The notes under the pieces were generated by a model. The model was not told where the DNA came from and ran no database searches. It worked only from the letters and a program-made list of their open reading frames with translations. 53,443 bases of DNA from a virus (taxonomy: Duplodnaviria; Caudoviricetes). This document shows positions 15,990 through 28,387 of this stretch, one piece after another (the first letter of the stretch is position 1; each line of letters opens with the position of its first letter). Both the position numbers and the translations under genes were made by a program. Location: positions 1 to 53,443 of IMG/VR virus record IMGVR_UViG_3300005747_000096; one strand, 5' to 3'.

Positions 15990-16232
15990 TCACCAATTCT
16001 TGCAAGACCAGTAACGGGCCGTTAGTTTAGATTTTGCCGTGCTGCACTTGTGTCTGGCACGAAAGGATTTACGGCGCTTAGGGTTGCTCTTCTTGATCTT
16101 CATATTCGGGTCGCCGTATCGAATAATCTTCTCAGTGCCGCCCTCACACGCCTTCACAACAAACTTCTTGGATTCACCCGGTGTGCGGCGGGGCTTATTG
16201 CATTTCATCTTGGATTTATCGATTGCCATCAC
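15990..16232 (-). CDS. Small basic conserved phage protein
   Basis: 'KKFVVKAC..IRYGDPNM..RRKSFRARHKC..ARYWSCKNW'. Confidence 0.75.
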   Translation of the reverse strand: MMAIDKSKMKCNKPRRTPGESKKFVVKACEGGTEKIIRYGDPNMKIKKSNPKRRKSFRARHKCSTAKSKLTARYWSCKNW

Positions 16233-16486
16233 GCCACCACGAAATCTACAATTTGCCCATCCGGGCTACGAAGCTTGTTAGGATCAGGATTATACGCATA
16301 CCTCTGATCAACCAGCTTTAGATTCTCGACGGGAGTATTCTCATCTATCGGTTCCACTGAACCCGCTTCACCCGCCCTAGCCTTCTTCTCTACCTGCTCC
16401 CCAGTACCGCTCTCAAAAATTACATTCACATGCGTCTGAAACGGCATACTAGGCAGAGGAAAGTGACTGATTAATGTCTCACCCAT
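16229..16486 (-). CDS. Hypothetical protein
   Basis: 85-aa ORF overlapping both neighbours in the operon. Confidence 0.6.
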   Translation of the reverse strand: MGETLISHFPLPSMPFQTHVNVIFESGTGEQVEKKARAGEAGSVEPIDENTPVENLKLVDQRYAYNPDPNKLRSPDGQIVDFVVA

Positions 16487-16946
16487 AATTCACCCAAGTC
16501 CACCAGAGCAGGCCGATAGCCGAACCAAAGACCACTACGAGGGCAAGACTCCACTGAATAATATTAGCGATAAAAGCTCTAGCCTTAGCACGATCTTCGG
16601 CTTCCTGCTTCTTGCGTACACGCTCTTTAGCCTGCCAATTGACCCAATCTTGATACAGGCCCGGTCGGCCAAACAGGCGCATAGCAGACTCGATTTCCTT
16701 CTTAGCCTCACGAATGCGCTCAAGCTCCATAAATTCATCAAAACTATCTTCGCTGCGTCCTAGCGCCATAGACAGAAGGGATTTCTTCTTAGACTCGCCT
16801 TCTGCCTTTAATGTCTCTTCGGCAGTGAGCAGGGCACTAAGCTGCTTACCCATTGAGGTAATATCAGAGCCGGTGCCTATTAATGTTTTGATCTGGCCTA
16901 CAGCGGCATTCGCCGCCGACACAATGGCAAGCGTTTCTGCTATCAT
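16479..16946 (-). CDS. Coiled-coil membrane-anchored protein
   Basis: 155 aa, C-terminal TM helix; GGAAGG RBS. Confidence 0.65.
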   Translation of the reverse strand: MIAETLAIVSAANAAVGQIKTLIGTGSDITSMGKQLSALLTAEETLKAEGESKKKSLLSMALGRSEDSFDEFMELERIREAKKEIESAMRLFGRPGLYQDWVNWQAKERVRKKQEAEDRAKARAFIANIIQWSLALVVVFGSAIGLLWWTWVNYG

Positions 16947-16977
16947 CCTTCCCCCCGAAGAATTAGCTAAATGTAGG

Positions 16978-17172
16978 TTAAGTTGTGCCCTGCATCTGAT
17001 AGCACTGGTAACGGGCGTAGAAGTTTCTACCGTTTTTTATATTTTTTACGTCTTCTTCAACTTGAGCCTTGCAAGCAGCCTGACTGAAAAACCCTTGGTC
17101 TGTTCGAACCAATACATCACAAGTTCTAACATCCATCGGAGAAGCGCAGATCAGGACAACTGCAATCCACAT
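16978..17172 (-). CDS. Small Cys-containing hypothetical protein
   Basis: 64 aa, hydrophobic N-terminus, 4 Cys; TAATG coupling. Confidence 0.6.
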   Translation of the reverse strand: MWIAVVLICASPMDVRTCDVLVRTDQGFFSQAACKAQVEEDVKNIKNGRNFYARYQCYQMQGTT

Positions 17173-17312
17173 TATTTTTTCTTCTTGTGGGCCATGCCAC
17201 CATACATCATCTTAGGCTTCTTATTAGCCATACCACCGTACATCATTTTAACTTTGGCAGGCTTACCCGCAGGGGGATTAGACGCACCGCACTTTGCTTT
17301 TTCCTTAGTCAT
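17172..17312 (-). CDS. Small basic protein with duplicated MMYGGMA (46 aa, not in ORF track)
   Basis: MTKEKAKCGASNPPAGKPAKVKMMYGGMANKKPKMMYGGMAHKKKK. Confidence 0.7.
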   Translation of the reverse strand: MTKEKAKCGASNPPAGKPAKVKMMYGGMANKKPKMMYGGMAHKKKK

Positions 17313-17541
17313 CTTCATTTTCAATTTCCCTGATAATAAATGGATTAGGATCTTCCACTACGGTTGCGGCTTCTTCTGTCTCGAAATATTCCGCATAACC
17401 TCTAAAGATAAGATCTCTGTTCTGTGCCTGCTTCTTGGTGATCAGGCCTTCCTCTAAAAGAAGGTCACGCACAGCTTCCAGAGATAACTCCTTGCCTGTA
17501 CGCTCACGAATAGCTGCACGAATGTATACGAGATTTATCAT
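17305..17541 (-). CDS. Hypothetical protein, first gene after the late promoter
   Basis: 78 aa ORF downstream of TTGACC-N18-TATAAT. Confidence 0.65.
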   Translation of the reverse strand: MINLVYIRAAIRERTGKELSLEAVRDLLLEEGLITKKQAQNRDLIFRGYAEYFETEEAATVVEDPNPFIIREIENEDD

Positions 17542-17567
17542 AGGGCCATTTCTGCCCTGATATAGTT

Positions 17568-17652
17568 ATTATAACATCAGGACTACATTTAGGTCAACCA
17601 CTTAATTGAGTGGCATTATTGGGATTGACTTTTCTGAAAAATGCTGTATAAT
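17568..17652. promoter_or_regulatory. Divergent sigma70 promoters flanking a palindromic operator
   Basis: (-) TTGACC-N18-TATAAT at 17597-17568; (+) TTGACT-N16-TATAAT at 17625-17652; between them the near-palindrome CCACTTAATTGAGTGG (17598-17613). Confidence 0.65.
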
Positions 17653-17683
17653 TTACTTGTAAGCCGGGGGTTAATACTACTAG

Positions 17684-17842
17684 CTAGTCATAAATACGGC
17701 TATAAATCTCACCTCTAGAGATACCCATATCCTTTAACTGTTTGTCAGACATATTCTGTAAGATCCAATAATCAGAACGTCTTTGCTGGTTCTTCTGGAT
17801 AGACTTCCAGAATCCGTTCAAGCTGTTAAACACATAATCCAT
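17684..17842 (-). CDS. DUF1127 family small protein (52 aa, not in ORF track)
   Basis: MDYVFNSLNGFWKSIQKNQQRRSDYWILQNMSDKQLKDMGISRGEIYSRIYD matches the DUF1127 core (L/M)SDxxLxD(I/M)G(L/I)xRxEI; AGGAG RBS; TGCTATAAT extended -10 upstream. Confidence 0.8.
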   Translation of the reverse strand: MDYVFNSLNGFWKSIQKNQQRRSDYWILQNMSDKQLKDMGISRGEIYSRIYD

Positions 17843-17910
17843 ATCAACTCTCCTAAGTTTGTGTTGCTAAGTATATTATAGCAGCACTCTACTAAGGGGA
17901 GTTTTGTTAT

Positions 17911-18747
17911 TTAGTAATATCCGCTATGCTTCTGTAAGTACAAGATAGCTTTCTGCATTATGGTAGGATCATCCTTAAAATGCCCTAACCCTGAGTTACA
18001 AGTAGGACATAAATAACTTCTAAACTTGCCAGTAGCATGGCAATGATCCAGATGAAATGTTACCTTTCGGTTATATCGACTCGATAAACCCTCTTCGTCT
18101 ATCCCGCAAATAGTACAACAATGATTTTCAGGTAAAGGATTATCACGCTTTAGCTCGTTAAGTATACCGTCTGATCTTTTACAACAACTCTTGCATCTAG
18201 AACCTCGCTTACCCGTTTTAGAGTTTACGAAATGAAACTGGTTCTTAGGCTTACTCTCTTCACAAAGCACACATCTTTTTAAACCATATTGGTTAACTCT
18301 CCATCTTAAAAACTCACCTAGTGGAACCACCTTTAACCAGTACTTAAATTGGTTAGAAGTAATATCATGTTTGTTCAAAAACCTACTGAGATCGTTCTTC
18401 CTCATAGAAACTACAAGATCAGAGATATGCCCATGTAACTTATCTGTAATAGTATCTAGCCTTCCATAACATTTACTATGGTAAGCATTTCGGTACTTTT
18501 CGTATAAGTTCTTAAATCCTTGGTGAGAGATATAGATGCCGCTTTCACTAGAAACCTTTCTAGCCAAGGAACGGAGCGAACTAAACTGCTTGCTATCATC
18601 CACTTGATCAAAAGCAGCTTCGATAACAGATATGCTGTCATCAATTCTATAATACATATCCAAATTATCCCCCACAGAATAACCCCAGGGAGGCCTTAAA
18701 CCAGGATTAATAACCTGCCTCTTAACAGGCCAACAGTCTAACCCCAT
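17911..18747 (-). CDS. Endonuclease VII-family (HNH-like) nuclease with N-terminal DNA-binding domain
   Basis: 'CTICG..LDHCHATGKFRSYLCPTCNSGLGHFKDD', central CxxC..CxxC; AT-richer than neighbours. Confidence 0.85.
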   Translation of the reverse strand: MGLDCWPVKRQVINPGLRPPWGYSVGDNLDMYYRIDDSISVIEAAFDQVDDSKQFSSLRSLARKVSSESGIYISHQGFKNLYEKYRNAYHSKCYGRLDTITDKLHGHISDLVVSMRKNDLSRFLNKHDITSNQFKYWLKVVPLGEFLRWRVNQYGLKRCVLCEESKPKNQFHFVNSKTGKRGSRCKSCCKRSDGILNELKRDNPLPENHCCTICGIDEEGLSSRYNRKVTFHLDHCHATGKFRSYLCPTCNSGLGHFKDDPTIMQKAILYLQKHSGYY

Positions 18748-19061
18748 TAATCTATGTTGAAGAGATCATCTACAGCGTCAGTGCTGTCCTCTATGCGCCC
18801 TGCCGTAGCCCGTAGCCTCTCAGCTAACCGGGTAAACTCATGGGCAATACTATACAGCTTCTGGTAACCGTTAATGTCACCATAAAACTCACTTAATTCT
18901 TCAGTAACGCCTTCAAGATCTACCTTAGTCTCAGTAGCCTCATCACCATCACCCACATAGATAAACGTAGCAAGATAACAAATGCCATCAGCATCTATAT
19001 CAAAGTCGTGATCTACATGAATCGGGATATCCAGCGTAATATCAGAGCCAAACTCACTCAT
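18747..19061 (-). CDS. Acidic hypothetical protein
   Basis: 104 aa ORF; upstream promoter-like TTGACT (19136-19131) with operator motif. Confidence 0.65.
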   Translation of the reverse strand: MSEFGSDITLDIPIHVDHDFDIDADGICYLATFIYVGDGDEATETKVDLEGVTEELSEFYGDINGYQKLYSIAHEFTRLAERLRATAGRIEDSTDAVDDLFNID

Positions 19062-19334
19062 AATATACTCTCAGTTAATAACAGCCTGCAGTACAGCCTG
19101 TGATTGATATATAACTAAGTGGCACAACTGAGTCAATAGGATTTTACATAATACAGGAACAAATTCCTGAATTTATGGTATTATGTTGACGAAAACAGAA
19201 CGAAAGTCCTGCAGGTAGCCTATTATCGGGGCGATTTACAAGCATGAAATCCCAAAAATAGGTAGGATTGGTGCACGATACCGGGATACCCCCCATCGGC
19301 GCTCGCCCCCGTCTGCTACAACGCAAGATTTTAT

Positions 19335-19347
19335 TAAACTATTGATT
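19335..19347 (-). promoter_or_regulatory. IHF-consensus site near the putative genome end
   Basis: AATCAATAGTTTA matches WATCAANNNNTTR exactly. Confidence 0.45.
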
Positions 19348-19566
19348 TTATTGCGTAATTTATGGGGATTTATGGGGCTGAAACTCTTTAGTTATGGGGC
19401 CAAGAGCAAAAAAAGCCAATAAAACAAAGGCTTTTCGGTAAAAAGTATCTGCAAAAAGTATTCAAAAGAAAGAAAAGCAAAAGCTTGCAGCGCAAAAGCT
19501 TTAAAATTCTGCAGGGGGTTGCACGGTGACGGGTTTATAAAGGCGGGGCGGGGGTTCTTTGGGTGC

Positions 19567-19621
19567 ATCGTTTGGCCCTTGTCTTTTAGTTTTGCTTTAT
19601 CGTTTGGCCCCTGTCTTTTAG
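19567..19621. repeat. 23-bp direct repeat in the non-coding end of the early block
   Basis: ATCGTTTGGCCCYTGTCTTTTAG at 19567-19589 and 19599-19621. Confidence 0.7.
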
Positions 19622-19762
19622 AATATGCTCTTACAGCCAATATAAGCCCCGCTGAGTAGCCCTAACCTGGTTTCCGCTGTTTATACCTAGACCGGCTAGG
19701 CTTTGCCTTCTCTATGGGCTTTATTTCGCCCCTTATTGCCGCCCTTTATTATACCCCCAAGC

Positions 19763-19792
19763 AAAAGCCCCGCCGGTTTAAGGGCAGGGCTT
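19763..19792 (-). terminator. Intrinsic terminator of the early operon
   Basis: AAGCCCTGCC-loop-GGCGGGGCTTTT right after the MTase stop. Confidence 0.65.
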
Positions 19793-19817
19793 CAATCTTT
19801 TGGTTTTGGCTTGGGGT

Positions 19818-20567
19818 TTATTCTGCCGCCTGTATTTCATTTATGGCTTGGGTAAATTTGATAGTGGGTTCATTTGCTTCAAACACCGCTTGGGCAAAGC
19901 CCCTAGGCGTTGCGCTTCTAATATTCTTAGTCTTTAGGCTTTTGCCCCCTAACTTTCTATGCTGTCTTGAAGCCCCAAAACTTTCACAATTTACAGGCAA
20001 CGGGGCAGGCATAGCAAAACCGCCCCCCGTCCATAAACAAGTTTTTTTGCTATACGCATCACGGGGCGGGATATGATCGGGCCATTGCGGGTGAATTGCG
20101 TCTTGATCTTGGATATAGCCCCCGAATTGATACGGGTGAAAAGTATGATCGGGCTTGCGCCATATTGTAGATAATACGCTAACGGGGTTTTCGATCATAA
20201 AAGGGCAATCAAGCTTTTCTGCAAGATATGCAATAGCTGAACAATGGCCTGCAGCCTTATCTTGAAAGGCGGGGTCTTTTGCCCGTTTCTTTGCGAAATG
20301 CGCCGCCCCGCTAACTGCAAGATCGGTGCAAGGCGGGAAGCCTAAAACTAAAGCAACCCGCCCCGCATATTCTGCAGCAAGATCTTGCATTGTTTCGGGG
20401 CTATAAAGATCAAGCTTTGCTTTAACCATAAAGCCCCCGTTTTGATAATGATAACAAGATGCGCCGTTGTGCTGTATATCAAAGGCAATGCCCCCATAGC
20501 CTGCATTTACCCAAGGCTGCAGCGCAACCCCTGTAAAATCATAAAGCGATAAGACAAGATCACGCAT
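19818..20567 (-). CDS. Phage DNA cytosine-C5 methyltransferase-like protein
   Basis: Motif I-like 'VLSLYDFTG', catalytic 'GFPPCTDL', motif VI 'IENPV', 'YSKKTCLW'; likely start MRDLVL at 20567. Confidence 0.75.
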   Translation of the reverse strand: MRDLVLSLYDFTGVALQPWVNAGYGGIAFDIQHNGASCYHYQNGGFMVKAKLDLYSPETMQDLAAEYAGRVALVLGFPPCTDLAVSGAAHFAKKRAKDPAFQDKAAGHCSAIAYLAEKLDCPFMIENPVSVLSTIWRKPDHTFHPYQFGGYIQDQDAIHPQWPDHIPPRDAYSKKTCLWTGGGFAMPAPLPVNCESFGASRQHRKLGGKSLKTKNIRSATPRGFAQAVFEANEPTIKFTQAINEIQAAE

Positions 20568-20940
20568 TTTGCACCGCCTTTGCGAAAAGACGCAAGGCAA
20601 GATCAAGATTTGATCTATAGGTTTGACCTGTTGCAAGATCTTGCATTTCAAAGGGATATTTTCGGGCTTTTGAATTATAGCCAATAAGCGAAAAGCTTTT
20701 TCCTTGATCATTGCCAATCTTTGAAACGTCTAAATTATAGAAATTTGCATAAAAATCTAAATCCTTTTCGCTTTGGCTTTTGGCCCCCTTCACTTTTACT
20801 TCAAGCTTAAAGTTTGCAACGTCTTGATCAAAGCTGCATTTTCCCGCATGTATTTCTAAGCCTTCAAATTGCTGCAGGTTTTGAAGCAATGCGTTTATTT
20901 CGCTGCGAATTGATCGGATTTTTTCTTTTGTAAATTTCAT
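20560..20940 (-). CDS. Early hypothetical protein
   Basis: 126 aa, preceded by the repeated RBS AAAAGGAACCGACCAAAATG. Confidence 0.8.
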   Translation of the reverse strand: MKFTKEKIRSIRSEINALLQNLQQFEGLEIHAGKCSFDQDVANFKLEVKVKGAKSQSEKDLDFYANFYNLDVSKIGNDQGKSFSLIGYNSKARKYPFEMQDLATGQTYRSNLDLALRLFAKAVQNA

Positions 20941-20968
20941 TTTGGTCGGTTCCTTTTGCTAGTTACTA

Positions 20969-21024
20969 GCTGCAAAATCTGCAGCCCAAGGCCCCCGCCA
21001 AAGGCAGGGGCTAAAGGCTAAAGA
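20969..21024 (-). repeat. Structured intergenic repeat, copy 1
   Basis: TTTAGCCTTTAGCCCCTGC-CTTTG-GCGGGGGCCTTGGGCTGCAGATTTTGCAGC; near-identical to 22202-22257. Confidence 0.85.
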
Positions 21025-21114
21025 CTAAGTGAAAAGAAGCGGGGCAAATTGCAGCATGATCAAAATACCAAACAAGCAAAGCCCCCCGATAAGATCACCG
21101 ATAAAGCCCCGCAT
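21025..21114 (-). CDS. 29-aa single-TM peptide
   Basis: MRGFIGDLIGGLCLFGILIMLQFAPLLFT; TAATG-coupled. Confidence 0.55.
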   Translation of the reverse strand: MRGFIGDLIGGLCLFGILIMLQFAPLLFT

Positions 21115-21341
21115 TATGCTGCAGCCTTTTTGAATTTATAGGCATTGCCTGATGTTTTAAAGCTTACCAAGGCCCCGTTTAATACGTTTTGAAGCGTTCC
21201 ATATGGAATTGAATGTTCGCTTATGGGTTGCCCCTTTTCATTAAGCAAAATTATATATTCCCAACGCTTTAAATGGCATTGTTTGAAGCTTTGATAGAAG
21301 CTTGTTTCTTTGCCGTTAATTTCTAAAATAAAGCCCCGCAT
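21114..21341 (-). CDS. Early hypothetical protein
   Basis: Likely start MRGFILE at 21341 (TGATG coupling to DUF932 gene). Confidence 0.7.
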   Translation of the reverse strand: MRGFILEINGKETSFYQSFKQCHLKRWEYIILLNEKGQPISEHSIPYGTLQNVLNGALVSFKTSGNAYKFKKAAA

Positions 21342-22171
21342 CACGCTGCAGCCTGTTCTGCGATATCCCAAAGGCCTTGGTTCAATCTCACAATTTCTTT
21401 GAGGCCGGTCACCGCTCTTGCGGATCTTGTTTTTATGCCTTTTGCGTTTCGGGATATGATTGGCAGGCCTGCCCCAAGAATACTTTCTTGAAGCCTATTG
21501 TATACTGTCCAAAGATCTTGGCTTGCGTCTTCAATCCGCTTTGGGTGATTGGCGTGTATCATGGTAACGCTATCCCAAAAGGCCCCCGTGTCGGGGCTTC
21601 TGTCTATTTGTTTCCAGCGTAAATCTAAGGCCTGCCTTGCAAGGCTTTGCTGTTGCTTAATATCAAGCTTAACTGCCTGCATTAGCGATGCGGCTTCCAT
21701 AGCCTTTGGCATGTTTTGGGCTTGCTCTTGCACAAGCTTTTCAAAGCCTGCAGTCTGGCCCCCGTCATGCCTTAGCTTTGCCTGCAGGCCTTCGCCCACG
21801 ATGCAACCATTATCACATGCAAACCGATAAATTCCCGACAGCAAACGCAAGCTTTGCGATGCATCGTGCGAATTCCAAAGCAGAATCTCAGGCCTATGCG
21901 GGGCGTCGTTTAGATCTTGTGCAAAGGCTATCAAGTGGCTTGCAAAAGGGATGTTTGCGCTTTTGCGTGATGGTCTTTGCGCTGCATAAACAGGCTTGAA
22001 CCCGTGATCTTGCAAAATTTCCACGGCCTGCATGGTATCAACAAAATCATAATTTTTTGACGTTTTAGGGGCAGGGCTTGGGGTAAATGCTGCAGGGCAT
22101 TTATCTAAAAGATCCGCTTGCGAAAGCATTGTGCGGGGGGTTTTGTCGGTGATCATTAAATCATATGGCAT
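21341..22171 (-). CDS. DUF932 (YubP/TIGR03299-like) protein
   Basis: 'PEILLWNSHDAS..LLSGIYRFACDNG', 'DLWTVYNRLQE', 'RLNQGLW'. Confidence 0.85.
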   Translation of the reverse strand: MPYDLMITDKTPRTMLSQADLLDKCPAAFTPSPAPKTSKNYDFVDTMQAVEILQDHGFKPVYAAQRPSRKSANIPFASHLIAFAQDLNDAPHRPEILLWNSHDASQSLRLLSGIYRFACDNGCIVGEGLQAKLRHDGGQTAGFEKLVQEQAQNMPKAMEAASLMQAVKLDIKQQQSLARQALDLRWKQIDRSPDTGAFWDSVTMIHANHPKRIEDASQDLWTVYNRLQESILGAGLPIISRNAKGIKTRSARAVTGLKEIVRLNQGLWDIAEQAAA

Positions 22172-22201
22172 TTTGGTCGGTTCCTTTTTTTTAGGTTTAT
22201 T

Positions 22202-22257
22202 GCTGCAAGATTGCAGCCCAAGGCCCCCGCAAATTGCAGGGGCTAAAGGCTAAAATC
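22202..22257 (-). repeat. Structured intergenic repeat, copy 2
   Basis: TTTAGCCTTTAGCCCCTGC-AATTT-GCGGGGGCCTTGGGCTGCAATCTTGCAGC. Confidence 0.85.
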
Positions 22258-22491
22258 TTAAAAGATATCTGCCCCCATGATGTTTAAAAGCTTTGGGTTT
22301 GGGGGGCTTTCTGCATAATGCTTTTTGATATCTGCAGCCATTTCACTTTTGTCAGTATAAAAAGAACCGTCCGCAAAAAAGCTTTCACCGTCTTGATCAA
22401 GCAACCAATAGCCCCAACCGTTTTGGTTTCTTTCGGTTCCAATCTTTGCGCCTATGGTAGACGCTAAAAAGCGCAATTCTTTAATTGTCAT
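22258..22491 (-). CDS. Early hypothetical protein
   Basis: Likely start MTIKELRF at 22491 (TAATG coupling). Confidence 0.65.
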   Translation of the reverse strand: MTIKELRFLASTIGAKIGTERNQNGWGYWLLDQDGESFFADGSFYTDKSEMAADIKKHYAESPPNPKLLNIMGADIF

Positions 22492-22727
22492 TAAACCGCC
22501 CCCGCTGTTTTTTCTTCTAATTCTTGGGGCGTGTTTGCAGTAACGCATTCAATGATTGAAACGGTGAAGACATCACCCATTTTTTGGGCCTGCTTAAAAA
22601 TATTGCTTTCTATGCTGTCTTCGATTGTGCGGCAGGTATTGCCTAAAACAGACATATCTAAAACCCGTCCTTTGAATTCTTGGTTGTATATGCCGTTTAT
22701 GGTTGCGATTGCTTCAAAGTATTTCAT
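22491..22727 (-). CDS. Early hypothetical protein
   Basis: 78 aa, preceded by AAAAGGAACCGACCAAAATG. Confidence 0.75.
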   Translation of the reverse strand: MKYFEAIATINGIYNQEFKGRVLDMSVLGNTCRTIEDSIESNIFKQAQKMGDVFTVSIIECVTANTPQELEEKTAGAV

Positions 22728-22826
22728 TTTGGTCGGTTCCTTTTGTCAAAAGTTAAGGGGCAAAGCTTATGCCCTGCCCCTTGTTATTTCATTTCCACAA
22801 TTTAGTAAAGCCACTTTATTAATCTT

Positions 22827-22895
22827 TCAAAATAAAAGATCTAAAGCCCATAACCAAAATACGGTGAAGCCCAAAGCAGTATAAAAGATTTTCAT
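22827..22895 (-). CDS. 22-aa hydrophobic peptide
   Basis: MKIFYTALGFTVFWLWALDLLF; ATGA-coupled, GAGG RBS. Confidence 0.45.
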   Translation of the reverse strand: MKIFYTALGFTVFWLWALDLLF

Positions 22896-23149
22896 AGCGC
22901 CTCTTCTGCCTTTTCAAGCAAACTATCAAAGCCGTAACCGCAACATATGATAAAGGCTTGATTGTAATGTTCACGGGTTGCGGGTTCTAAATTGGGCCAC
23001 TGTTCAGCTAATTGGTTAAGATCTTTCAAGGCCCCGCTGTCGCTGTCTTCATTTACAGCGCTTGCGAATTCCTGCCAAAGACTAAGATCCCAAACATCGT
23101 TTTCAATTGCTTCTAAAAGCTTTGGGGTTTTTGGGGTTCTAGTTTTCAT
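22892..23149 (-). CDS. Early acidic hypothetical protein
   Basis: Likely start MKTRTPK at 23149 with poly-G RBS. Confidence 0.65.
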   Translation of the reverse strand: MKTRTPKTPKLLEAIENDVWDLSLWQEFASAVNEDSDSGALKDLNQLAEQWPNLEPATREHYNQAFIICCGYGFDSLLEKAEEAL

Positions 23150-23150
23150 A

Positions 23151-23366
23151 TTAAAGCCCCCCGACATATCGAAAGCCACCCTTGCAGCGCTTATCAGGCT
23201 TAAAGCCTAATTTTGCTGCAGCCTTTGCAGCAAGCCTATTAAATTCAGGGCGGTTTTCTTCATCACCAAAAGAGCGGGGTATATAAGTATATAAGACAGG
23301 CTTGCCCCCGATTAGGCAAAGGGCAAGGGCTTGCTTGCCATTGCTGGCGGCTCTTATCTTTAACAT
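23151..23366 (-). CDS. Early hypothetical protein
   Basis: 71 aa; AGGGGGG RBS. Confidence 0.65.
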   Translation of the reverse strand: MLKIRAASNGKQALALCLIGGKPVLYTYIPRSFGDEENRPEFNRLAAKAAAKLGFKPDKRCKGGFRYVGGL

Positions 23367-23378
23367 ATCTAAGCCCCC

Positions 23379-24149
23379 CTATTCTGCAGCCAAGAGAAAG
23401 CCCTTGCCCGCTTGAGCAAGATCTTTAGGAAAACAGGCTTGCGCTTGTGCGGGGCATTGTGTTGTTTGGCTTGGCTCTACTATAAACAAGCTTTTGCTTT
23501 TCTTGGCTTCATTGCCTTTCAGTTTAAGCCCGATAATTTTGCCCCGTTGTTTTTGGTTTTTGATATCGGACAAATCACCGTCAACAATTTCACGGCCTAA
23601 GAAATAAGAACCGACAGGCACAAAGCCCCGAAAGACAACGGCAACAGGCCTGTCGGTTTGAAGCGCTCGCTTCACTTGCTTTTGATATTTTGGCTCTTGG
23701 GAATATGAAAAAATAATATCATAGTTAGGCGGCAAATTGTGCAGCCTTTGGGCGCTTTTGGTATAGTCTAGAAAATAGGCTTGGGGGTATCTTTGGGGGA
23801 TGCCATATCTTTCCCAAGGGATATCGCTTATTGTGTTAAGCCTAATAGCAGGGCTTTTATTTGTGCGGATGCAAAGTGATATAAAGTTTTGTATTTCTTT
23901 ATTCCATTGATCAAGAAAGCCCTGCCTATCTTTCATATAAAAATCAGTTTTGGATTGCCTGCCATTTCTGACATTCGAGAAAGCCCCAAAGCCCGCTTCT
24001 ACTAAGCAAGGCTCTTTGCAACCCGCTAAGATTGCTGCAGGGCAAATTGTATCGTTTGGATAAAGAGAAAGGCTTGCAATCCGCAACCCGCTTTCCTTTT
24101 GGCTCTTTCTAACTTTTGTGTTGCTTGCGCTTGTATCAAGTAATTTCAT
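23379..24149 (-). CDS. Gp88-like family protein
   Basis: 'CP......GCKEPCL', 'IRLNTISDIPWE', 'FLDYTK', 'VAVVFR', 'VDGDLSD', 'IIGLKLKG'. Confidence 0.75.
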   Translation of the reverse strand: MKLLDTSASNTKVRKSQKESGLRIASLSLYPNDTICPAAILAGCKEPCLVEAGFGAFSNVRNGRQSKTDFYMKDRQGFLDQWNKEIQNFISLCIRTNKSPAIRLNTISDIPWERYGIPQRYPQAYFLDYTKSAQRLHNLPPNYDIIFSYSQEPKYQKQVKRALQTDRPVAVVFRGFVPVGSYFLGREIVDGDLSDIKNQKQRGKIIGLKLKGNEAKKSKSLFIVEPSQTTQCPAQAQACFPKDLAQAGKGFLLAAE

Positions 24150-24370
24150 TTCTTGGTTTCCTTTTCGTTTTAGATTTTTGCAGATCTTGGGGTTTGTCTT
24201 TTGGGTTGGTTAGGCCCGCCCTTTAATCTGCCACCCAATAGAAACGAAAAACGCAAAGCAATCAAGCGCAAATTTGCACAAATAAAAAGCACATAAAAAG
24301 AATTTATTATTCCTTCCTGGTGGGTGTAATTATTTCTTGAGTTCAATATCTAACTATCATATAGATACCT

Positions 24371-24631
24371 GTGCGGGGGCTATATGTGCATATTGACGCC
24401 CAGGTAAAAAAAGAACTAAAAGGGAACATTCAAAACAATAGGGGGATTCGTATGGTGCTAGACCAGGCACAAGCTAAAGAGCTTGGAGAAGCTTTAATTG
24501 ATGCTTCGGATAAAATTGATAGTAATAAAAACACACAAGCAATTGTAGTTATTGGCGATTTAGCGGTAGCAGTTCCTTATCACCCAGACATGCAAGACGA
24601 ATATGAGACAGTTTGTATTATAGGGGTGTAA
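24371..24631 (+). CDS. Hypothetical protein (true start may be ATG at 24452)
   Basis: ORF followed by a terminator; AGGGGGA RBS before 24452. Confidence 0.55.
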   Translation: MRGLYVHIDAQVKKELKGNIQNNRGIRMVLDQAQAKELGEALIDASDKIDSNKNTQAIVVIGDLAVAVPYHPDMQDEYETVCIIGV

Positions 24632-24661
24632 TACGCATTCTCGCCTAAGTAGTTTTAAATT

Positions 24662-24683
24662 AGACCCTTCGGGGTCTTTTTTT
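24662..24683 (+). terminator. Intrinsic terminator
   Basis: AGACCC-TTCG-GGGTCT followed by a T tract. Confidence 0.85.
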
Positions 24684-24685
24684 AT

Positions 24686-24762
24686 AAAAAACCCCCGCCA
24701 AAGAAAGGGAATTGGCGAGGGCTGCTACTAGCAAGGAGACATAGGCTGGGAGGATGCCTACA
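24686..24762 (-). ncRNA. Candidate anti-Shine-Dalgarno (cuckoo/CcsR-like) sRNA
   Basis: TTGCAT..TATATA promoter at 24796-24769; hairpin UAGGC-AUCCUCCCA-GCCUA, single-stranded GUCUCCUU, terminator CCCUCGCCAA-UUCCCUUUCU-UUGGCGGGGG-U6. Confidence 0.55.
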
Positions 24763-24872
24763 AAACCATATATATATAATGCACTATATAATGCAACTAC
24801 TATTTTATTAATTGACTTTATTAATGCCACTCAGTTACATGGTATCAGCCTCATAACCTTTGGGAGACTGAT

Positions 24873-25946
24873 ATGGCGCATATAAAATACCTGAGAAGGA
24901 AAACACTAGAGAGTGGACATAAGATCTGGGTGGTTAATCCACCTAAATACGTCAAAGAAGCTATTGGTGCTTACTATGAGCAGTTTTCTGATCAATCAGA
25001 TGCTACTGCGAGAGCAATCAGTATTGCGGATCAGTACACCGACTACAAAAGAAACATTAAGCGTGAAGTTCATATTAATGAGCGCACGGTTGGTGGCTTA
25101 GTTAATCAGTATAAGCAAACTAACAGTTGGAATAAGCTAACCGACAACTCTAAAAGAACCTACGACCAGTTGTTGCGGGGTACACTTAGATTACGGGTTA
25201 GTGAGTCACCCAAGTTGCTACAGGACATGCTGATAGAGCATATTTCTGTTAAACATGCAGAGTATTTGTACTCACACCTGTGCAAAGATGTAAGTATGCA
25301 CAGAGCAAACCATGTGTGTAAGGTACTCAGACGCATATGGACAGTAGGCCAGCGTCTTGGGTTAACAAAAGTCAATCCATTTAAGAATATGGGTCTAAGG
25401 AAGACGCCATCCCGTACTGTTCTATGGGAACCAGAGCAAGTACATGCATTTGTCGATAAAGCAGATGAAATGGGCACTCCTTCTCTGGGTACGATGGCTT
25501 TGCTTTGCTATGACCTATGCCAGAGGCCAGGAGATATGCGTCAGCTTACTTGGCAGGACTTTCGTGATCAGATCTTTGGGTTTGAGCAGGAAAAGAATAA
25601 GACATGGGTAGATATCCCTGCCTCTCCACGGCTGTTAGAGCGGATGCAATTGGTATCCCCAAGCAACTGGCATGATCAGATTGTGTATTACGAAAAGACA
25701 GGCAAACCATATGACCGCAGGCAGTACAATAAAGTCTTCTGTCGGATCAGAAACGCTGCAGGTCTGCCCTCTGAGTTACAGCTAAGAGATCTTAGACGTA
25801 CAGGTGCAACTGAAATGGCAGAAGCTGGCTGTACTGAGGACGAATTGCGTTCTGTAACGGGCCACCAGAGCCGTGACGTTCTTTCTATCTATGTAAGGCC
25901 TACAAGAAAGCTTGCCGCTGCAGGCATAAACAAGCGGTTTGGATAA
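24873..25946 (+). CDS. int: Tyrosine integrase
   Basis: Catalytic set present: 'CQRPGD', 'QEKNK', 'RDLRRTGAT', 'TGH', 'IYVRP'; GGAG RBS. Confidence 0.92.
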   Translation: MAHIKYLRRKTLESGHKIWVVNPPKYVKEAIGAYYEQFSDQSDATARAISIADQYTDYKRNIKREVHINERTVGGLVNQYKQTNSWNKLTDNSKRTYDQLLRGTLRLRVSESPKLLQDMLIEHISVKHAEYLYSHLCKDVSMHRANHVCKVLRRIWTVGQRLGLTKVNPFKNMGLRKTPSRTVLWEPEQVHAFVDKADEMGTPSLGTMALLCYDLCQRPGDMRQLTWQDFRDQIFGFEQEKNKTWVDIPASPRLLERMQLVSPSNWHDQIVYYEKTGKPYDRRQYNKVFCRIRNAAGLPSELQLRDLRRTGATEMAEAGCTEDELRSVTGHQSRDVLSIYVRPTRKLAAAGINKRFG

Positions 25947-26107
25947 TGGCAGGTAATATTAACGGAGCGATAAAGGCTTCTGCGGTAGTAGCACTCTTAA
26001 TAGCACTTTTACCCGTGCTAATCGCTATGACCTATTCCGAATATCCACGGTACTGCAAGCTATCGATCTTGTTACCGTGCATTGGAGTTTATGATGAACG
26101 TAAATGA
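25946..26107 (+). CDS. Small TM protein (53 aa, not in ORF track)
   Basis: MAGNINGAIKASAVVALLIALLPVLIAMTYSEYPRYCKLSILLPCIGVYDERK; TAATG-coupled to int. Confidence 0.6.
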   Translation: MAGNINGAIKASAVVALLIALLPVLIAMTYSEYPRYCKLSILLPCIGVYDERK

Positions 26108-26234
26108 GGCCAGAGCAGCCTTCGAAGCTGAACTACAGCGTGTGATTGAACAGCCACCACAGCAATTAACTGAACGCCTGATCGACTTGGTTAAGGCAAT
26201 TCGTGTGGAGTTAAGGAAAACTGATGGAAAGTAA
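26091..26234 (+). CDS. Small helical protein (47 aa, not in ORF track)
   Basis: MMNVNEARAAFEAELQRVIEQPPQQLTERLIDLVKAIRVELRKTDGK; GGAG RBS. Confidence 0.6.
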   Translation: MMNVNEARAAFEAELQRVIEQPPQQLTERLIDLVKAIRVELRKTDGK

Positions 26235-26373
26235 GGAACTTTCGCATTTAGCCTACCACCTAGATATGTTAGGTGTAGTGCCACTCAAGAAGGTGGAAGA
26301 AGAAAAGAAGCTTCACCGTACATATGAGTATAGAAAAGTCGAATTAGATGAAAATGGAGAGCCACCTTGGTAG
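26224..26373 (+). CDS. Small protein ending DENGEPPW (49 aa, not in ORF track)
   Basis: MESKELSHLAYHLDMLGVVPLKKVEEEKKLHRTYEYRKVELDENGEPPW; AAGGA RBS. Confidence 0.6.
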   Translation: MESKELSHLAYHLDMLGVVPLKKVEEEKKLHRTYEYRKVELDENGEPPW

Positions 26374-27116
26374 CAGAAATCACAGTCGAATATGTAGATC
26401 ATTGCGGTACAGACCTTTCAGTCTGTGATGCTGCACGGGTGTCCTACGCAAAGAAATCTGAGCCAGTGGGATACTCTGGTGTAGATGGAAAACCCCTACT
26501 GCCTATCCTGCACGATAAGGATAAGAAGCTGATAAAGTATTTGGCTGATCATAATCATCATAGCCCCTTCAATCATACCTTCGTAACCTTTAGATGCTAC
26601 GCACCGTTGTTTGTTATAGCCCAGCTTCAAAAGCACGAATACATGCCGTGGAATCAGGAGAGCCGTAGATATATTGATGATGAACCTGAGTTCTATATCC
26701 CAAAGCAGTGGCGGGGCCGACCTAAAAACTCCAAGCAAGGTTCTGATGGGGTTGTTGATATCGGCGGTAGTGTTCCTGTAGGCCGGGCTATGTATGCTTG
26801 TAGGGATGCTTATAACGGCCTGCTAAAGGCTGGTGTAGCCCCTGAAATGGCTAGGATGGTATTACCTCAAAATATGATGGCACGGTGGATCTGGAGTGGT
26901 ACGGTTAAAGCTATATCGAAAATGGTAGGGCTTAGAAGTGCATCAGATAGCCAATACGAAAGCCAAGTGATTGCAAATCAAATCAGTGATATCGTAAGAG
27001 GATTGTTTCCCGTAAGCTGGGATGCGCTGGTTCCCCATAAAGAGATCATTCGACCAATGGATGATGAAGAGCGGCAGCAAGCCGTGTATAAATCTATCCA
27101 GAATCAGTACATTTAA
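26367..27116 (+). CDS. thyX: Flavin-dependent thymidylate synthase
   Basis: 'AARVSY', 'HHSPFNH', 'QLQKH..WNQESRRY', 'APEMARMVLP'; TTG start with GGAG 7 nt upstream. Confidence 0.92.
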   Translation: MVAEITVEYVDHCGTDLSVCDAARVSYAKKSEPVGYSGVDGKPLLPILHDKDKKLIKYLADHNHHSPFNHTFVTFRCYAPLFVIAQLQKHEYMPWNQESRRYIDDEPEFYIPKQWRGRPKNSKQGSDGVVDIGGSVPVGRAMYACRDAYNGLLKAGVAPEMARMVLPQNMMARWIWSGTVKAISKMVGLRSASDSQYESQVIANQISDIVRGLFPVSWDALVPHKEIIRPMDDEERQQAVYKSIQNQYI

Positions 27117-27193
27117 TTTCTTGACATACGATTTCGGATACTTTTATGTACTATACTTAACTCTGGGTATTAACCCGTTGTTTTTATTGGACT

Positions 27194-27241
27194 TGGTTGC
27201 GGGAGTAGGATTTGAACCTACGACCTTCAGGTTATGAGCCT
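27194..27241 (-). mobile_element. attP: attP core identical to the 3' half of tRNA-fMet(CAT)
   Basis: Minus strand AGGCTCATAACCTGAAGGTCGTAGGTTCAAATCCTACTCCCGCAACCA = anticodon loop, T-arm and acceptor 3' strand with CCA; no 5' half; flanked by inverted IHF-like boxes at 27171-27189 and 27245-27263. Confidence 0.88.
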
Positions 27242-27393
27242 TTTCAATGAAAACAATGGGTTATAGACGCCAAAGGTTAATAGGCCCATAACTCTGCCAC
27301 ATAATAATGTGCTTGACTTATATCAAAAAGCCTATAGCCTGCGGCTAACCCGCCCAGGGTTAGTAATAGCAACTAGCTAAGAGGCACAAGGCA

Positions 27394-27615
27394 ATGAATA
27401 AAGAGCAAGAAGATTTAAAGGGCAAAGAAGATTATATAAGCCCTGCTACCTTTCTATGTGAATACTGCACAATACCAGTACTTATCTCTCAGCCTGCAAC
27501 TGTATTAATGTATACATGCAAGGGGCCAAAATTCCCGAAGTATCTAGGAGAACTAGGCCCATCCTTAAAATTCACAAGACTATGCAGAGATTGTGGGGAT
27601 CACTTCGATGTCTAG
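27394..27615 (+). CDS. Small zinc-finger-like protein
   Basis: CEYC...CRDC; GAGG RBS. Confidence 0.5.
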   Translation: MNKEQEDLKGKEDYISPATFLCEYCTIPVLISQPATVLMYTCKGPKFPKYLGELGPSLKFTRLCRDCGDHFDV

Positions 27616-28387
27616 TTATCGTGAACAGGTAGAATGGGTTAAAACCTTATCAATCAAAGAAGGCAGTCGGATAACAACCGACTGTCCATTTTGTGGTGGT
27701 AAGAACAAATTCACGCTAGATAAATTTGATGGTAAGCTTGTATGGAATTGTTATAGAGCATCCTGCAATGTTAAAGGCGCACATTCAGGTGAGCGTAATC
27801 TTGATGCGGTAAAGGCTAGACTATCTGGTTCTGCTATCAAGAGACATAAGCCTGAACCTAAACCTATTCCAACAATCACAACGAATGTATCAAACAGTGA
27901 TACAGCTTTAGCTTACCTTAAAAAGGTTAATAGTTATGATGCATATCTTAGAGGCGATATAAAGATTCGCTATGCCCCTAAAGAAAGTCGGGTACTCTTC
28001 TATAACAAAGACAATACAGGCGCTGTAGGACGCTCTATGAGGCCTGTTCGTGCTAAGTGGTGGAGTTATGGAGAACTATCTAAAGGCATACATGTAGGTA
28101 ATGGTGATCACGCAATCCTGGTTGAAGATGTAGCTTCTGCATGTGCGGTATCAAACGTAACAGGTCTAACTGGTGTTGCGCTATTAGGTACGAGCATTAC
28201 TAAAAGCATTAAAAGAGCAATTAGTAAGTATAAAAAAGTAACATTAGTTCTTGACAATGACGCAAGTGCTAAGGCAGTATCTCTAATGGGCGTACTTGGA
28301 TATCGTTCTCAGGTACGACTTACTGTGGTAGATCTAAAGTATCTATCCCCCGACAAGATAAGAGAGGTAATTGAATATGAAATTTAA
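27593..28387 (+). CDS. DNA primase (zinc finger + TOPRIM)
   Basis: 'CPFCGG..WNCYRASC', 'LVEDVASA', 'VALLGT', 'LDNDA'. Confidence 0.88.
   Translation: MGITSMSSYREQVEWVKTLSIKEGSRITTDCPFCGGKNKFTLDKFDGKLVWNCYRASCNVKGAHSGERNLDAVKARLSGSAIKRHKPEPKPIPTITTNVSNSDTALAYLKKVNSYDAYLRGDIKIRYAPKESRVLFYNKDNTGAVGRSMRPVRAKWWSYGELSKGIHVGNGDHAILVEDVASACAVSNVTGLTGVALLGTSITKSIKRAISKYKKVTLVLDNDASAKAVSLMGVLGYRSQVRLTVVDLKYLSPDKIREVIEYEI

Follow-up and report, generated by a model that had tools for sequence, protein, structure and literature searches.

The DNA analysed here, hereafter the window, is the 53,443-bp IMG/VR record IMGVR_UViG_3300005747_000096, a whole phage genome in a single sequence, the first base of which lies inside a structural gene. 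Its two gene arms run apart from about 24.15-24.45 kb and meet at about 38.4 kb. A compositional island of about 5 kb resides at the head of the leftward arm, and the usage of short DNA words in it departs from that of the remaining genome (the backbone). The island corresponds to the leftward, presumably early, transcription unit as a whole, promoter-proximal in its arm, plus a 3' non-coding tail. The island and the elements found in it are the following:

19287..24304, no strand: compositional island of 5,018 bp, word usage of the class-A "dialect"; 19287 and 24304 are change points of the cumulative log-likelihood
23379..24149, minus strand: GP88-family protein, 256 aa, first island gene (Pfam PF17338, E 7e-29; phrog_1617, E 2e-50)
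23151..23366, minus strand: small basic open reading frame (ORF), 71 aa, without family (from the ORF list; 97% identical in relative L011)
22892..23179, minus strand: small acidic ORF, 95 aa, GTG start, without family (17 D+E vs. 7 K+R)
22491..22727, minus strand: small ORF, 78 aa, with the repeated ribosome-binding site (RBS) cassette in front
22258..22548, minus strand: small ORF, at most 96 aa, start uncertain, without family (from the ORF list)
21341..22171, minus strand: DUF932 protein, 276 aa (Pfam PF06067, E 1e-23)
21114..21371, minus strand: possible small ORF, 85 aa, TTG start, doubtful (from the ORF list)
20560..20940, minus strand: small ORF, 126 aa, without family, RBS cassette in front, no Pfam or PHROG match
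19818..20567, minus strand: DNA methyltransferase, 249 aa, last island gene (phrog_757 "DNA methyltransferase", E 1.5e-72; ATG at 20567)
20934..20958, and again 22165-22189 and 22721-22745, minus strand: translation-initiation cassette of 25 nt, AAAAGGAACCGACCAAAATG, common to three genes (repeat search)
20980-21022 and 22212-22254: hairpin element upstream of the cassette, common to two genes
19330..19817, no strand: non-coding tail in the island dialect (log-likelihood ratio +195 per kb by a model of island coding DNA); contains a 32-bp direct repeat (19558-19621)

Word usage inside and outside the island

In the interval 19330-24300, which makes up 9.3% of the genome, GGAG/CTCC and GTAC are missing (0 of 168 and 0 of 151 genome copies; 15.6 and 14.0 expected on a uniform distribution). 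GANTC is found once, at 21883 (1 of 81 copies; 7.5 expected), and both CCAG/CTGG (4 of 380; 35.3 expected) and GAGG/CCTC (2 of 239; 22.2 expected) are rare. All these depletions had been noticed by eye in the original prediction, and the counts bear them out, as they do for the words called frequent: 17 of 38 AAGCTT copies (3.5 expected), 15 of 44 CTGCAG copies (4.1), 8 of 32 AGATCT copies (3.0) and 96 of 289 GGGG/CCCC copies (26.9) reside in the interval. GATC is not depleted (29 of 271). Runs of five or more G/C number 25 in the island vs. 1-4 per 5-kb backbone segment. The largest GGAG/CTCC gap spans 5,796 bp (18689-24485), and has an approximate chance of 7e-7 under uniform site placement; for the largest GTAC gap (19091-25034) the figure is 3e-6.

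The limits of the island are sharp. When the genome is scanned in sliding 1-kb windows, 20 of 210 are island-like, and these are contiguous (starts 19001-23751), with no others elsewhere. Measured against its own genome, the DNA in the island is atypical, the 4-mer chi-square being 370-580 in windows wholly within the island vs. 98-370 elsewhere.

The notion of a block purged of specific 4-5-mers proved too narrow. About 37 of the 256 strand-specific 4-mers deviate, and enriched words are as frequent as depleted ones. Trinucleotides are affected as well: relative to the backbone, CTC/GAG (0.22-fold), GTA/TAC (0.33-fold), ACT/AGT (0.34-fold) and GGA/TCC (0.46-fold) are depleted, CCC/GGG (2.3-fold), AAA/TTT (2.1-fold) and CAA/TTG (1.8-fold) enriched. 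Under the Markov correction suggested as a check, applied at maximal order inside the block, other words deviate more than GGAG and GTAC, because the sub-words of these two are rare as well.

Codon usage differs markedly in the two compartments, as GAG represents 9% of Glu codons in the island vs. 36% in the backbone, CAG 21% vs. 49%, TAC 15% vs. 39%, AGC 52% vs. 22%, and CTT 41% vs. 20%. Yet the signature is not a by-product of amino-acid or codon composition, an origin rejected by synonymous shuffles which keep the nine island proteins and the codon usage of the island itself. These shuffles predict 11.2 GGAG (0 observed), 21.4 CCAG (3 observed), 12.8 GAGG (2 observed), 8.3 GANTC (1 observed) and 4.1 GTAC (0 observed, P 0.008). 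Resampling with backbone codon usage gives expectations of 22.1, 32.7, 20.3, 13.5 and 9.2, respectively. Compared with the shuffles, 37 of 256 words lie at |z|>3 in the island, 3 and 2 in two control gene sets.

The signature is a property of double-stranded DNA, non-coding DNA included. Both strands had been said to be affected, and over 120 pairs of words the z-scores of a word and its reverse complement are indeed correlated in the island (r 0.63), vs. 0.15 and 0.08 in the two control sets. This symmetry favours a property of the double helix over a cause acting at the level of mRNA or translation. On the same grounds, avoidance of internal Shine-Dalgarno-like words was rejected, since complements are equally depleted and deviations are strand-symmetric. 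Intergenic DNA was scored by a model for which only island coding DNA served as training set. Within the island, all five intergenic segments score +148 to +335 per kb, three segments just outside (19062-19329, 24301-24370 and 24632-24872) score -181 to -283, and six backbone intergenic controls -22 to -342.

Neither AA/TT, AAA/TTT nor GGG/CCC show 10-11 bp phasing beyond the backbone level, and curvature or helical phasing was rejected. Similarly discarded was a Chi-like strand-biased word, AAAGCCCC, the strand ratio of which is 9:1 in the window, and 5:3 and 3:2 in other class-A islands; no over-represented strand-biased word is common to class-A islands.

Relatives, dialects and divergence

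According to Pfam and PHROG searches, the minus strand of the genome encodes an SU10-type portal, a large terminase, a T7-like capsid protein and a GP4-type fibre, the plus strand an integrase, a DnaB-like helicase, a family A DNA polymerase and a ribonucleotide reductase. The DNA polymerase is 65% identical to that of CRP-235, 60% to those of CRP-738 and CRP-3, 57% to that of CRP-212, and 38% to that of HMO-2011, which places the genome among HMO-2011-type roseophages, in the integrase-bearing (CRP-3) group. Gene order is shared with CRP-235, CRP-738, CRP-3 and CRP-212, the tyrosine integrase gene lying upstream of the replication module. The genome is thus that of a temperate HMO-2011-type podophage of marine Roseobacter. 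Passages of PMC9038755 describe HMO-2011-type phages as a dominant, widely distributed marine viral group. No near-identical DNA was found in the phage collection by megablast.

The island resides at the same place, with the same signature and nearly free of GGAG and GTAC, in all eight IMG/VR relatives identified (flanks 65-95% identical). A syntenic island of class-A dialect is carried by the isolate CRP-235, in which the GP88 protein is 73% and the DUF932 protein only 39% identical to the window counterparts. In 4-mer usage normalised for guanine plus cytosine (GC) content the window island correlates with the CRP-235 island at r 0.84, and with its own backbone at r 0.51. CRP-3, CRP-212 and CRP-738 have a syntenic block made up by different genes and different in composition; the CRP-3 and CRP-212 islands reach 52-60% GC, use GGAG freely, and are GTAC-poor. 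Other dialects are found in the more distant relatives, and almost all of these are poor in GTAC. The gene content of the islands differs among CRP-235, CRP-3, CRP-212 and CRP-738, and differences at the level of single cassettes were observed among environmental relatives.

The analysis was extended to loci anchored on the integrase gene. Eighty were obtained, 59 tabulated, and 35 analysed, a locus being kept if it had at least 1.5 kb upstream and at least 2.5 kb downstream of the integrase gene; several of the 35 are near-identical relatives, and the counts are therefore not independent. (In 30 of the 80 loci the contig ends within 1.1 kb upstream of the integrase gene, as expected from short contigs, and this was not used as evidence.) The upstream block is more island-like than the downstream genes in all 35 loci. 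GTAC per kb is lower upstream in 33, and the remaining two lack GTAC on either side. Eighteen islands, of all dialects, could be exactly delimited: in 14 of these GTAC does not exceed one third of its backbone rate, and two further phages are devoid of GTAC genome-wide. Purged 4-mers number 10-14 in each class-A island, and 1-6 in islands of the other dialects. "Island minus backbone" vectors correlate with that of the window in 24 of 24 other loci (0.23-0.80; null 0.09), GTAC being the most consistently depleted word. The 4-mers made up by W (A/T) or by S (G/C) bases only are enriched in islands of all dialects.

The distribution of the class-A dialect does not follow the integrase tree. It is found at 99-96, 66, 62, 61 and 46% integrase identity, with other classes between. 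The GC content of dialects ranges from 32 to 57%, the lower figure being that of the island of the low-GC dialect. The link of GANTC to the alphaproteobacterial CcrM site, part of the original prediction, is not general, as the L030 island holds 11 GANTC vs. 1.0 expected. Further sister islands enriched in GANTC relative to the backbone rate are those of L039 (7 vs. 1.9), L045 (14 vs. 10.9) and L095 (14 vs. 5.0).

The dialect belongs to the place, not to gene families. Homologues of the methyltransferase in CRP-2 and CRP-207 have ordinary composition, as have many GP88 homologues (about 50% identity) in other phage contexts. A dialect inherent to either the methyltransferase or the GP88 family was rejected on these grounds.

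Island vocabulary is actively maintained during divergence. Observed substitutions, sorted by type and codon position, were applied at random to the window island in a context-free simulation. In the islands of four close relatives 5.5-10.1 new GGAG are expected, and 0-1 are observed (P<=0.003 each), the four comparisons sharing ancestry and not being independent. GAGG, CCAG, ACTC and AGTC resemble GGAG in this respect. For GTAC the test is weak, only 1.9-3.3 new sites being expected (P 0.05-0.43). Over the same pairs, 20 of 136 words, enriched ones among them, deviate at |z|>3 in the island, vs. 0 and 6 in flanking replication genes. No drift toward the backbone signature is seen at 9-29% divergence. 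The dialect is thus at equilibrium, rather than in decay.

Genes and edges of the island

As anticipated, the block holds a methyltransferase. It forms a separate, promoter-proximal and hypervariable gene unit. The methyltransferase is 55% identical to the CRP-2 "methylase" ("Dcm methylase" in the CRP-2 record), and did not match Pfam, NCBIfam or PDB sequences. The profile searches and the comparison with CRP-2 were carried out with the ORF starting at 20576, three codons longer. PPC- and ENP-like motifs were recognized by eye only, and the protein is a candidate C5-cytosine methyltransferase.

DUF932 is the sole family present in the islands of all five phages compared, being found in CRP-3 gp57, CRP-212 gp56, CRP-738 gp63 (weakly) and, by tblastn, in CRP-235 (39%). 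Other families found in islands are DUF2958 in CRP-3 and CRP-212, and DUF2786/DUF7168 in CRP-738. The AlphaFold model of the GP88 protein (predicted local distance difference test, pLDDT, 84) matched no PDB fold at E<=0.001, and the model of the DUF932 protein (pLDDT 82) no convincing solved fold; searches with both stayed at noise level (Foldseek E at least 0.13, best VIA Z 6.5 over 77 residues). The 71-aa ORF at 23151..23366 has no Pfam, PHROG or NCBIfam match. The 96-aa ORF at 22258..22548 is matched by tblastn in L012 (residues 10-96) and L013 (residues 15-85).

RBSs had been said to avoid GGAG, and GGAG or GAGG occurs upstream of none of 9 island genes vs. 13 of 46 backbone genes. In one variant found in metagenomes, 24134 is fused to 22172, and sequences upstream of the GP88 and DUF932 genes are thereby linked; this joint, as well as the repeated cassettes, is compatible with cassette shuffling. 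A second variant lacks 227 bp, the joint being 21117->21345, in contigs of three metagenome runs. The deletion is flanked by 45-nt direct repeats (21086-21130 and 21313-21357), and removes most of the doubtful 85-aa ORF.

The edges and flanks of the island hold the following elements, the first at its distal edge, the third at the head of the operon:

19180..19331, no strand: conserved non-coding element "X", about 150 nt, at the far (distal) island edge; the left limit 19287 falls inside
18747..19061, minus strand: very acidic 104-aa protein, first gene past the island (26 D+E vs. 6 K+R), backbone composition
24150..24451, no strand: intergenic region between the divergent arms, with the compositional limit 24304 about 150 bp ahead of the first island gene
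24873..25946, plus strand: tyrosine integrase (Pfam PF00589, E 5e-16), flank, backbone composition
27193-27241: attP core; a stretch of 46 bases matches a tRNA gene exactly in its 3' part (anticodon read by eye as CAT)

Element X is the target of 36 nhmmer matches in the fetched loci, from about 18 distinct phages of all dialects, always at the distal edge of the island and 2.8-5.6 kb upstream of the integrase gene. Its blocks include TTGAC..TTTAC..AAATCCCAATCTCTGGT..GTATACGGTAC..CCCCCC..TGGCACTCGCCC. A structured RNA was rejected, no consensus fold being found in the alignments, nor any Rfam or tRNA match. The element might act in packaging, as an entry stop, as an origin or as an operator region. 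The starts of two contigs lie 10 and 28 bases before it.

In each of the four isolates compared, the acidic 104-aa protein is conserved beside the gap (65-38% identity). Neither a family match nor a usable Protein Atlas match was found for it; by its charge alone it is a candidate DNA mimic. Its gene is preceded, just left of the island, by a near-consensus promoter recognized by eye on the minus strand (19100-19136; TTGACT, 17 bases, TATATA), and this in turn by a hairpin (19154-19169). Given this promoter and hairpin, the island looks like a separate transcription unit. At the opposite edge, the limit 24304 adjoins a weak promoter-like sequence on the minus strand, TTACAC-N17-TAAATT, spotted by eye and not listed by the consensus scan. 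On the plus strand, the 86-aa ORF at 24371-24631 probably starts at an ATG at 24452 (59 aa, GGGGGA as RBS); relatives align only from residue 26-27, and the gp01 genes of CRP phages are 186-192 bp long. A strong, bidirectional terminator-like hairpin (24662-24709) follows this ORF.

Capture of host DNA beside attP was considered as a source of the island and rejected, the attP core being about 2.9 kb away, in agreement with the CRP-3 attP primers, which map between gp06 and the primase gene. Passages of PMC6918029 report integration of CRP-3 into a tRNA-Met gene. The core of the window is flanked by the 249-aa ORF at 26367-27116, positional counterpart of the CRP-235 thymidylate synthase gene, and by the next gene, as in CRP-3. 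Exact matches to the core occur in at least 120 genome contigs, alphaproteobacterial and others, and in metagenome runs depth leaps there to hundreds or thousands, with loose ends on both sides.

Possible roles of the island

The lineage is visibly shaped by restriction, and avoidance is heavy in the backbone. Twenty-five of the 64 six-base palindromes are absent, and 34 of 64 occur at most twice, compared with 34 absent of the 2,016 non-palindromic 6-mer classes. Not one CGCG occurs in the 53,443 bases. Among the non-palindromes, CATCTC, CGTCTC and AGTCCC are some of those missing altogether, and GGWCC is limited to 5 copies. Among 44 related backbones, 30 purge CGCG, 20 CCGG, 4 ACGT, 4 ACGG and 2 GTAC. 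In L069 and L094 GTAC is absent over 11 kb of backbone (0 vs. 43 expected), and CGCG is kept, and enriched in their islands; L056, L058, L059 and L072 lack ACGT and ACGG/CCGT. Lineages of this phage group hence purge different 4-mers genome-wide. GTAC, purged in 2 of the 44 backbones, is a credible restriction target in the host range, and is mostly removed from the island only.

The island may be a variable early "establishment" operon kept free of the recognition words of defence systems, in the manner of T5 and T7-like phages, an interpretation that we favour tentatively. Such an operon would start where the leftward and rightward arms diverge, and end at terminator-like hairpins and element X. 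Its restricted vocabulary would be kept by selection on the double helix, and host restriction and other DNA-targeting defences would find no recognition words before the products of the operon act, these being the methyltransferase, the DUF932 and GP88-family proteins, and the small proteins. Defence nucleases would be the selective agent for words other than GTAC as well, the operon would be expressed early, and its DNA would be the first exposed. An extended version, in which the island is a swappable "immune-evasion module" of integrase-bearing HMO-2011-type phages, located between element X and the integrase gene, 3-5.6 kb long, first-exposed, written in one of several restricted dialects, and with element X and the adjoining repeats as entry stop or packaging site, seems unlikely. 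In this version each dialect would lack many short words simultaneously, and thereby hide the segment from the full set of DNA-targeting defences of a host population.

Several results weigh against evasion of defence. The depletion acts at the trinucleotide level, within a broad shift in which AAAG, GCAA, AAGC and GGGG reach z-scores of +4 to +8; classical site avoidance is different, and across the 44 related backbones involves 0-6 specific 4-mers in each. None of these backbones purges GGAG/CTCC, CCTC/GAGG or CCAG/CTGG, so that of the words originally proposed to evade restriction or defence, GTAC alone, purged in two of them, is independently implicated as a target. The 6-mers avoided in the backbone fail to predict the trinucleotides depleted in the island (Spearman -0.25, P 0.16). 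In the islands of CRP-3 and CRP-212, isolated on the same host strain as CRP-235, GGAG is near the expectation at the backbone rate, and GAGG and CCAG are abundant; such words are thus not lethal in that host. Once normalised for GC, all islands are closer to bacterial DNA (r 0.48-0.72) than backbones are (0.00-0.14), a result which also fits a shared gene pool. No island protein matches a known anti-restriction family (Ocr, Ard or other) in Pfam, PHROG or NCBIfam. As to the order of entry, public metagenome reads and contigs over 16000-28000 show no pile-ups of molecule ends, raw-read depth being however near zero. No passage on genome termini was found in papers on this phage group, PMC9038755 among them.

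Alternatively, the island could be assembled from accessory cassettes of a separate gene pool, that of other phages or conjugative elements, which has a signature of its own; frequent recombination between conserved flanks, and not selection on words in this phage, would then keep up the signature. We regard this origin as rather unlikely, although much of the variation described above suits it: the island is hypervariable between a conserved element X and a conserved integrase side, dialects are patchy over the integrase tree, the variant joining 24134 to 22172 operates at cassette level, the departure of islands from their backbones takes a common direction over the 24 loci, and islands are more like roseobacter DNA than backbones are. 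The families DUF932, DUF2958 and DUF2786/DUF7168 found in islands are common on plasmids and integrative elements, and DUF932-type genes on conjugative plasmids in particular. However, no close relative of the DUF932 protein was found in 185,579 species genomes, and the best signature match in a donor search over 103 genome loci had r 0.67, with no convincing donor. Over 11 contigs, the RBS cassette is confined to islands of close relatives, bar one exact match in L302, an unrelated GC-rich contig without the dialect. In none of the fetched loci does the class-A dialect occur outside the island, nor was a whole genome written in it found among them, though a donor may lie beyond the collections. 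The same gene families are ordinary in composition elsewhere, the lack of backbone-ward drift at 9-29% divergence is hard on imported DNA, and a reason why the pool should hold the signature is still needed.

The vocabulary might also serve some other function of the DNA, either by attracting or keeping off a DNA-binding protein of phage or host (for instance a silencer or a coating protein), or by a mechanical property required when a terminal segment is packaged or ejected. The strand symmetry of the signature and its independence of coding suit this idea, which we deem improbable, as do the strong enrichment of A-only and G/C-only runs (for the latter, the 25 vs. 1-4 reported above), the W-only and S-only 4-mers enriched across dialects, and limits coinciding with the transcription unit and element X. 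The absence of 10-11 bp phasing beyond the backbone and of a strand-biased word common to class-A islands speaks against it, and dialects of 32-57% GC are hard to reconcile with a single physical requirement. Adaptation of codons to the host, for fast translation of early genes, would account for a codon usage strongly unlike that of the backbone, and has been proposed in print for plasmid leading regions (PMC13478746). It is nevertheless very improbable here: log relative synonymous codon usage correlates with that of roseobacter ORFs at 0.04 (backbone -0.36), the reference being 57 long ORFs from 14 roseobacter loci, generic Rhodobacteraceae rather than the highly expressed genes of the true host. 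The host-preferred codons CTG, GAG, CAG, CGC and ATC are avoided in the island, and the signature exceeds codon usage, is strand-symmetric, and includes non-coding DNA. An assembly chimera or artefact could produce sharp composition breaks, but is refuted, as the same junctions and island recur in 8 independent IMG/VR contigs, in the isolate CRP-235, and in contigs from three metagenome runs, each of a different study.

An early establishment operon kept free of recognition words would have precedents. Region-limited avoidance in leading DNA is already known in T5, T7-like phages and, with mixed results, plasmids; according to PMC12455610, motifs in the first-injected region decide restriction sensitivity in the T7-like Murciavirus and in T5. 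The first-step-transfer (pre-early) DNA of T5 resembles the island in being a short segment of terminal type with early genes of its own and devoid of sites that occur elsewhere, and is adjoined by a large non-coding region with repeats (passages of PMC12455610; bioRxiv 10.1101/866236). In contrast, two-step entry, terminal repeats and a defined end are not in evidence for the island; single sites are purged there and dozens of words here, and the present phage belongs to a different lineage, being a temperate podovirus. As in the island, variability is high in the leading region of T7-like Autographiviridae (for example Murciavirus), an early region and the only one in which restriction motifs count; early anti-defence genes are expected in it (passages of PMC12455610). 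HMO-2011-type records differ, giving Caudoviricetes only and not being filed in Autographiviridae. No RNA polymerase family was detected among 30 window ORFs scanned against Pfam, and therefore entry driven by a T7-style polymerase cannot be assumed; there is no Ocr-like match either, and the vocabulary shift is global here, where one Type I motif is absent there. Plasmid leading regions show codon adaptation and no consistent palindrome depletion in the passages of PMC13478746, whereas in the island codon adaptation is unsupported and word depletion extreme.

As to restriction-site avoidance acting over whole phage genomes, the backbone is a strong case of it, and the island adds a second, region-limited layer, which differs in hitting non-palindromic words and 3-mers and in including enrichment. 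Horizontally acquired islands or morons of temperate phages, such as the lambda b region, are accessory blocks of atypical composition near the integrase. The island is likewise a non-essential-looking accessory block of atypical composition near the integrase; in contrast to morons, attP is about 2.9 kb off, and the signature is maintained and common to genes which are non-homologous or highly diverged. In the literature searched no report was found of region-limited avoidance in roseophages or HMO-2011-type phages, nor of a whole-operon vocabulary shift with alternative dialects.

Islands of this kind can mislead genome-wide tests of restriction avoidance, composition-based binning and host prediction. 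Should the interpretation as an establishment operon hold true, a strand-symmetric island unexplained by codons would be a computational marker for early or anti-defence operons in uncultured phages, and DUF932, the GP88 family and the small ORFs would be candidate anti-defence genes. Host defences would be able to rewrite the whole word usage of a sub-genomic segment, beyond the removal of a few sites, and lineages would keep alternative solutions as exchangeable modules. The leading-region principle would thereby extend to a group of temperate marine podoviruses.

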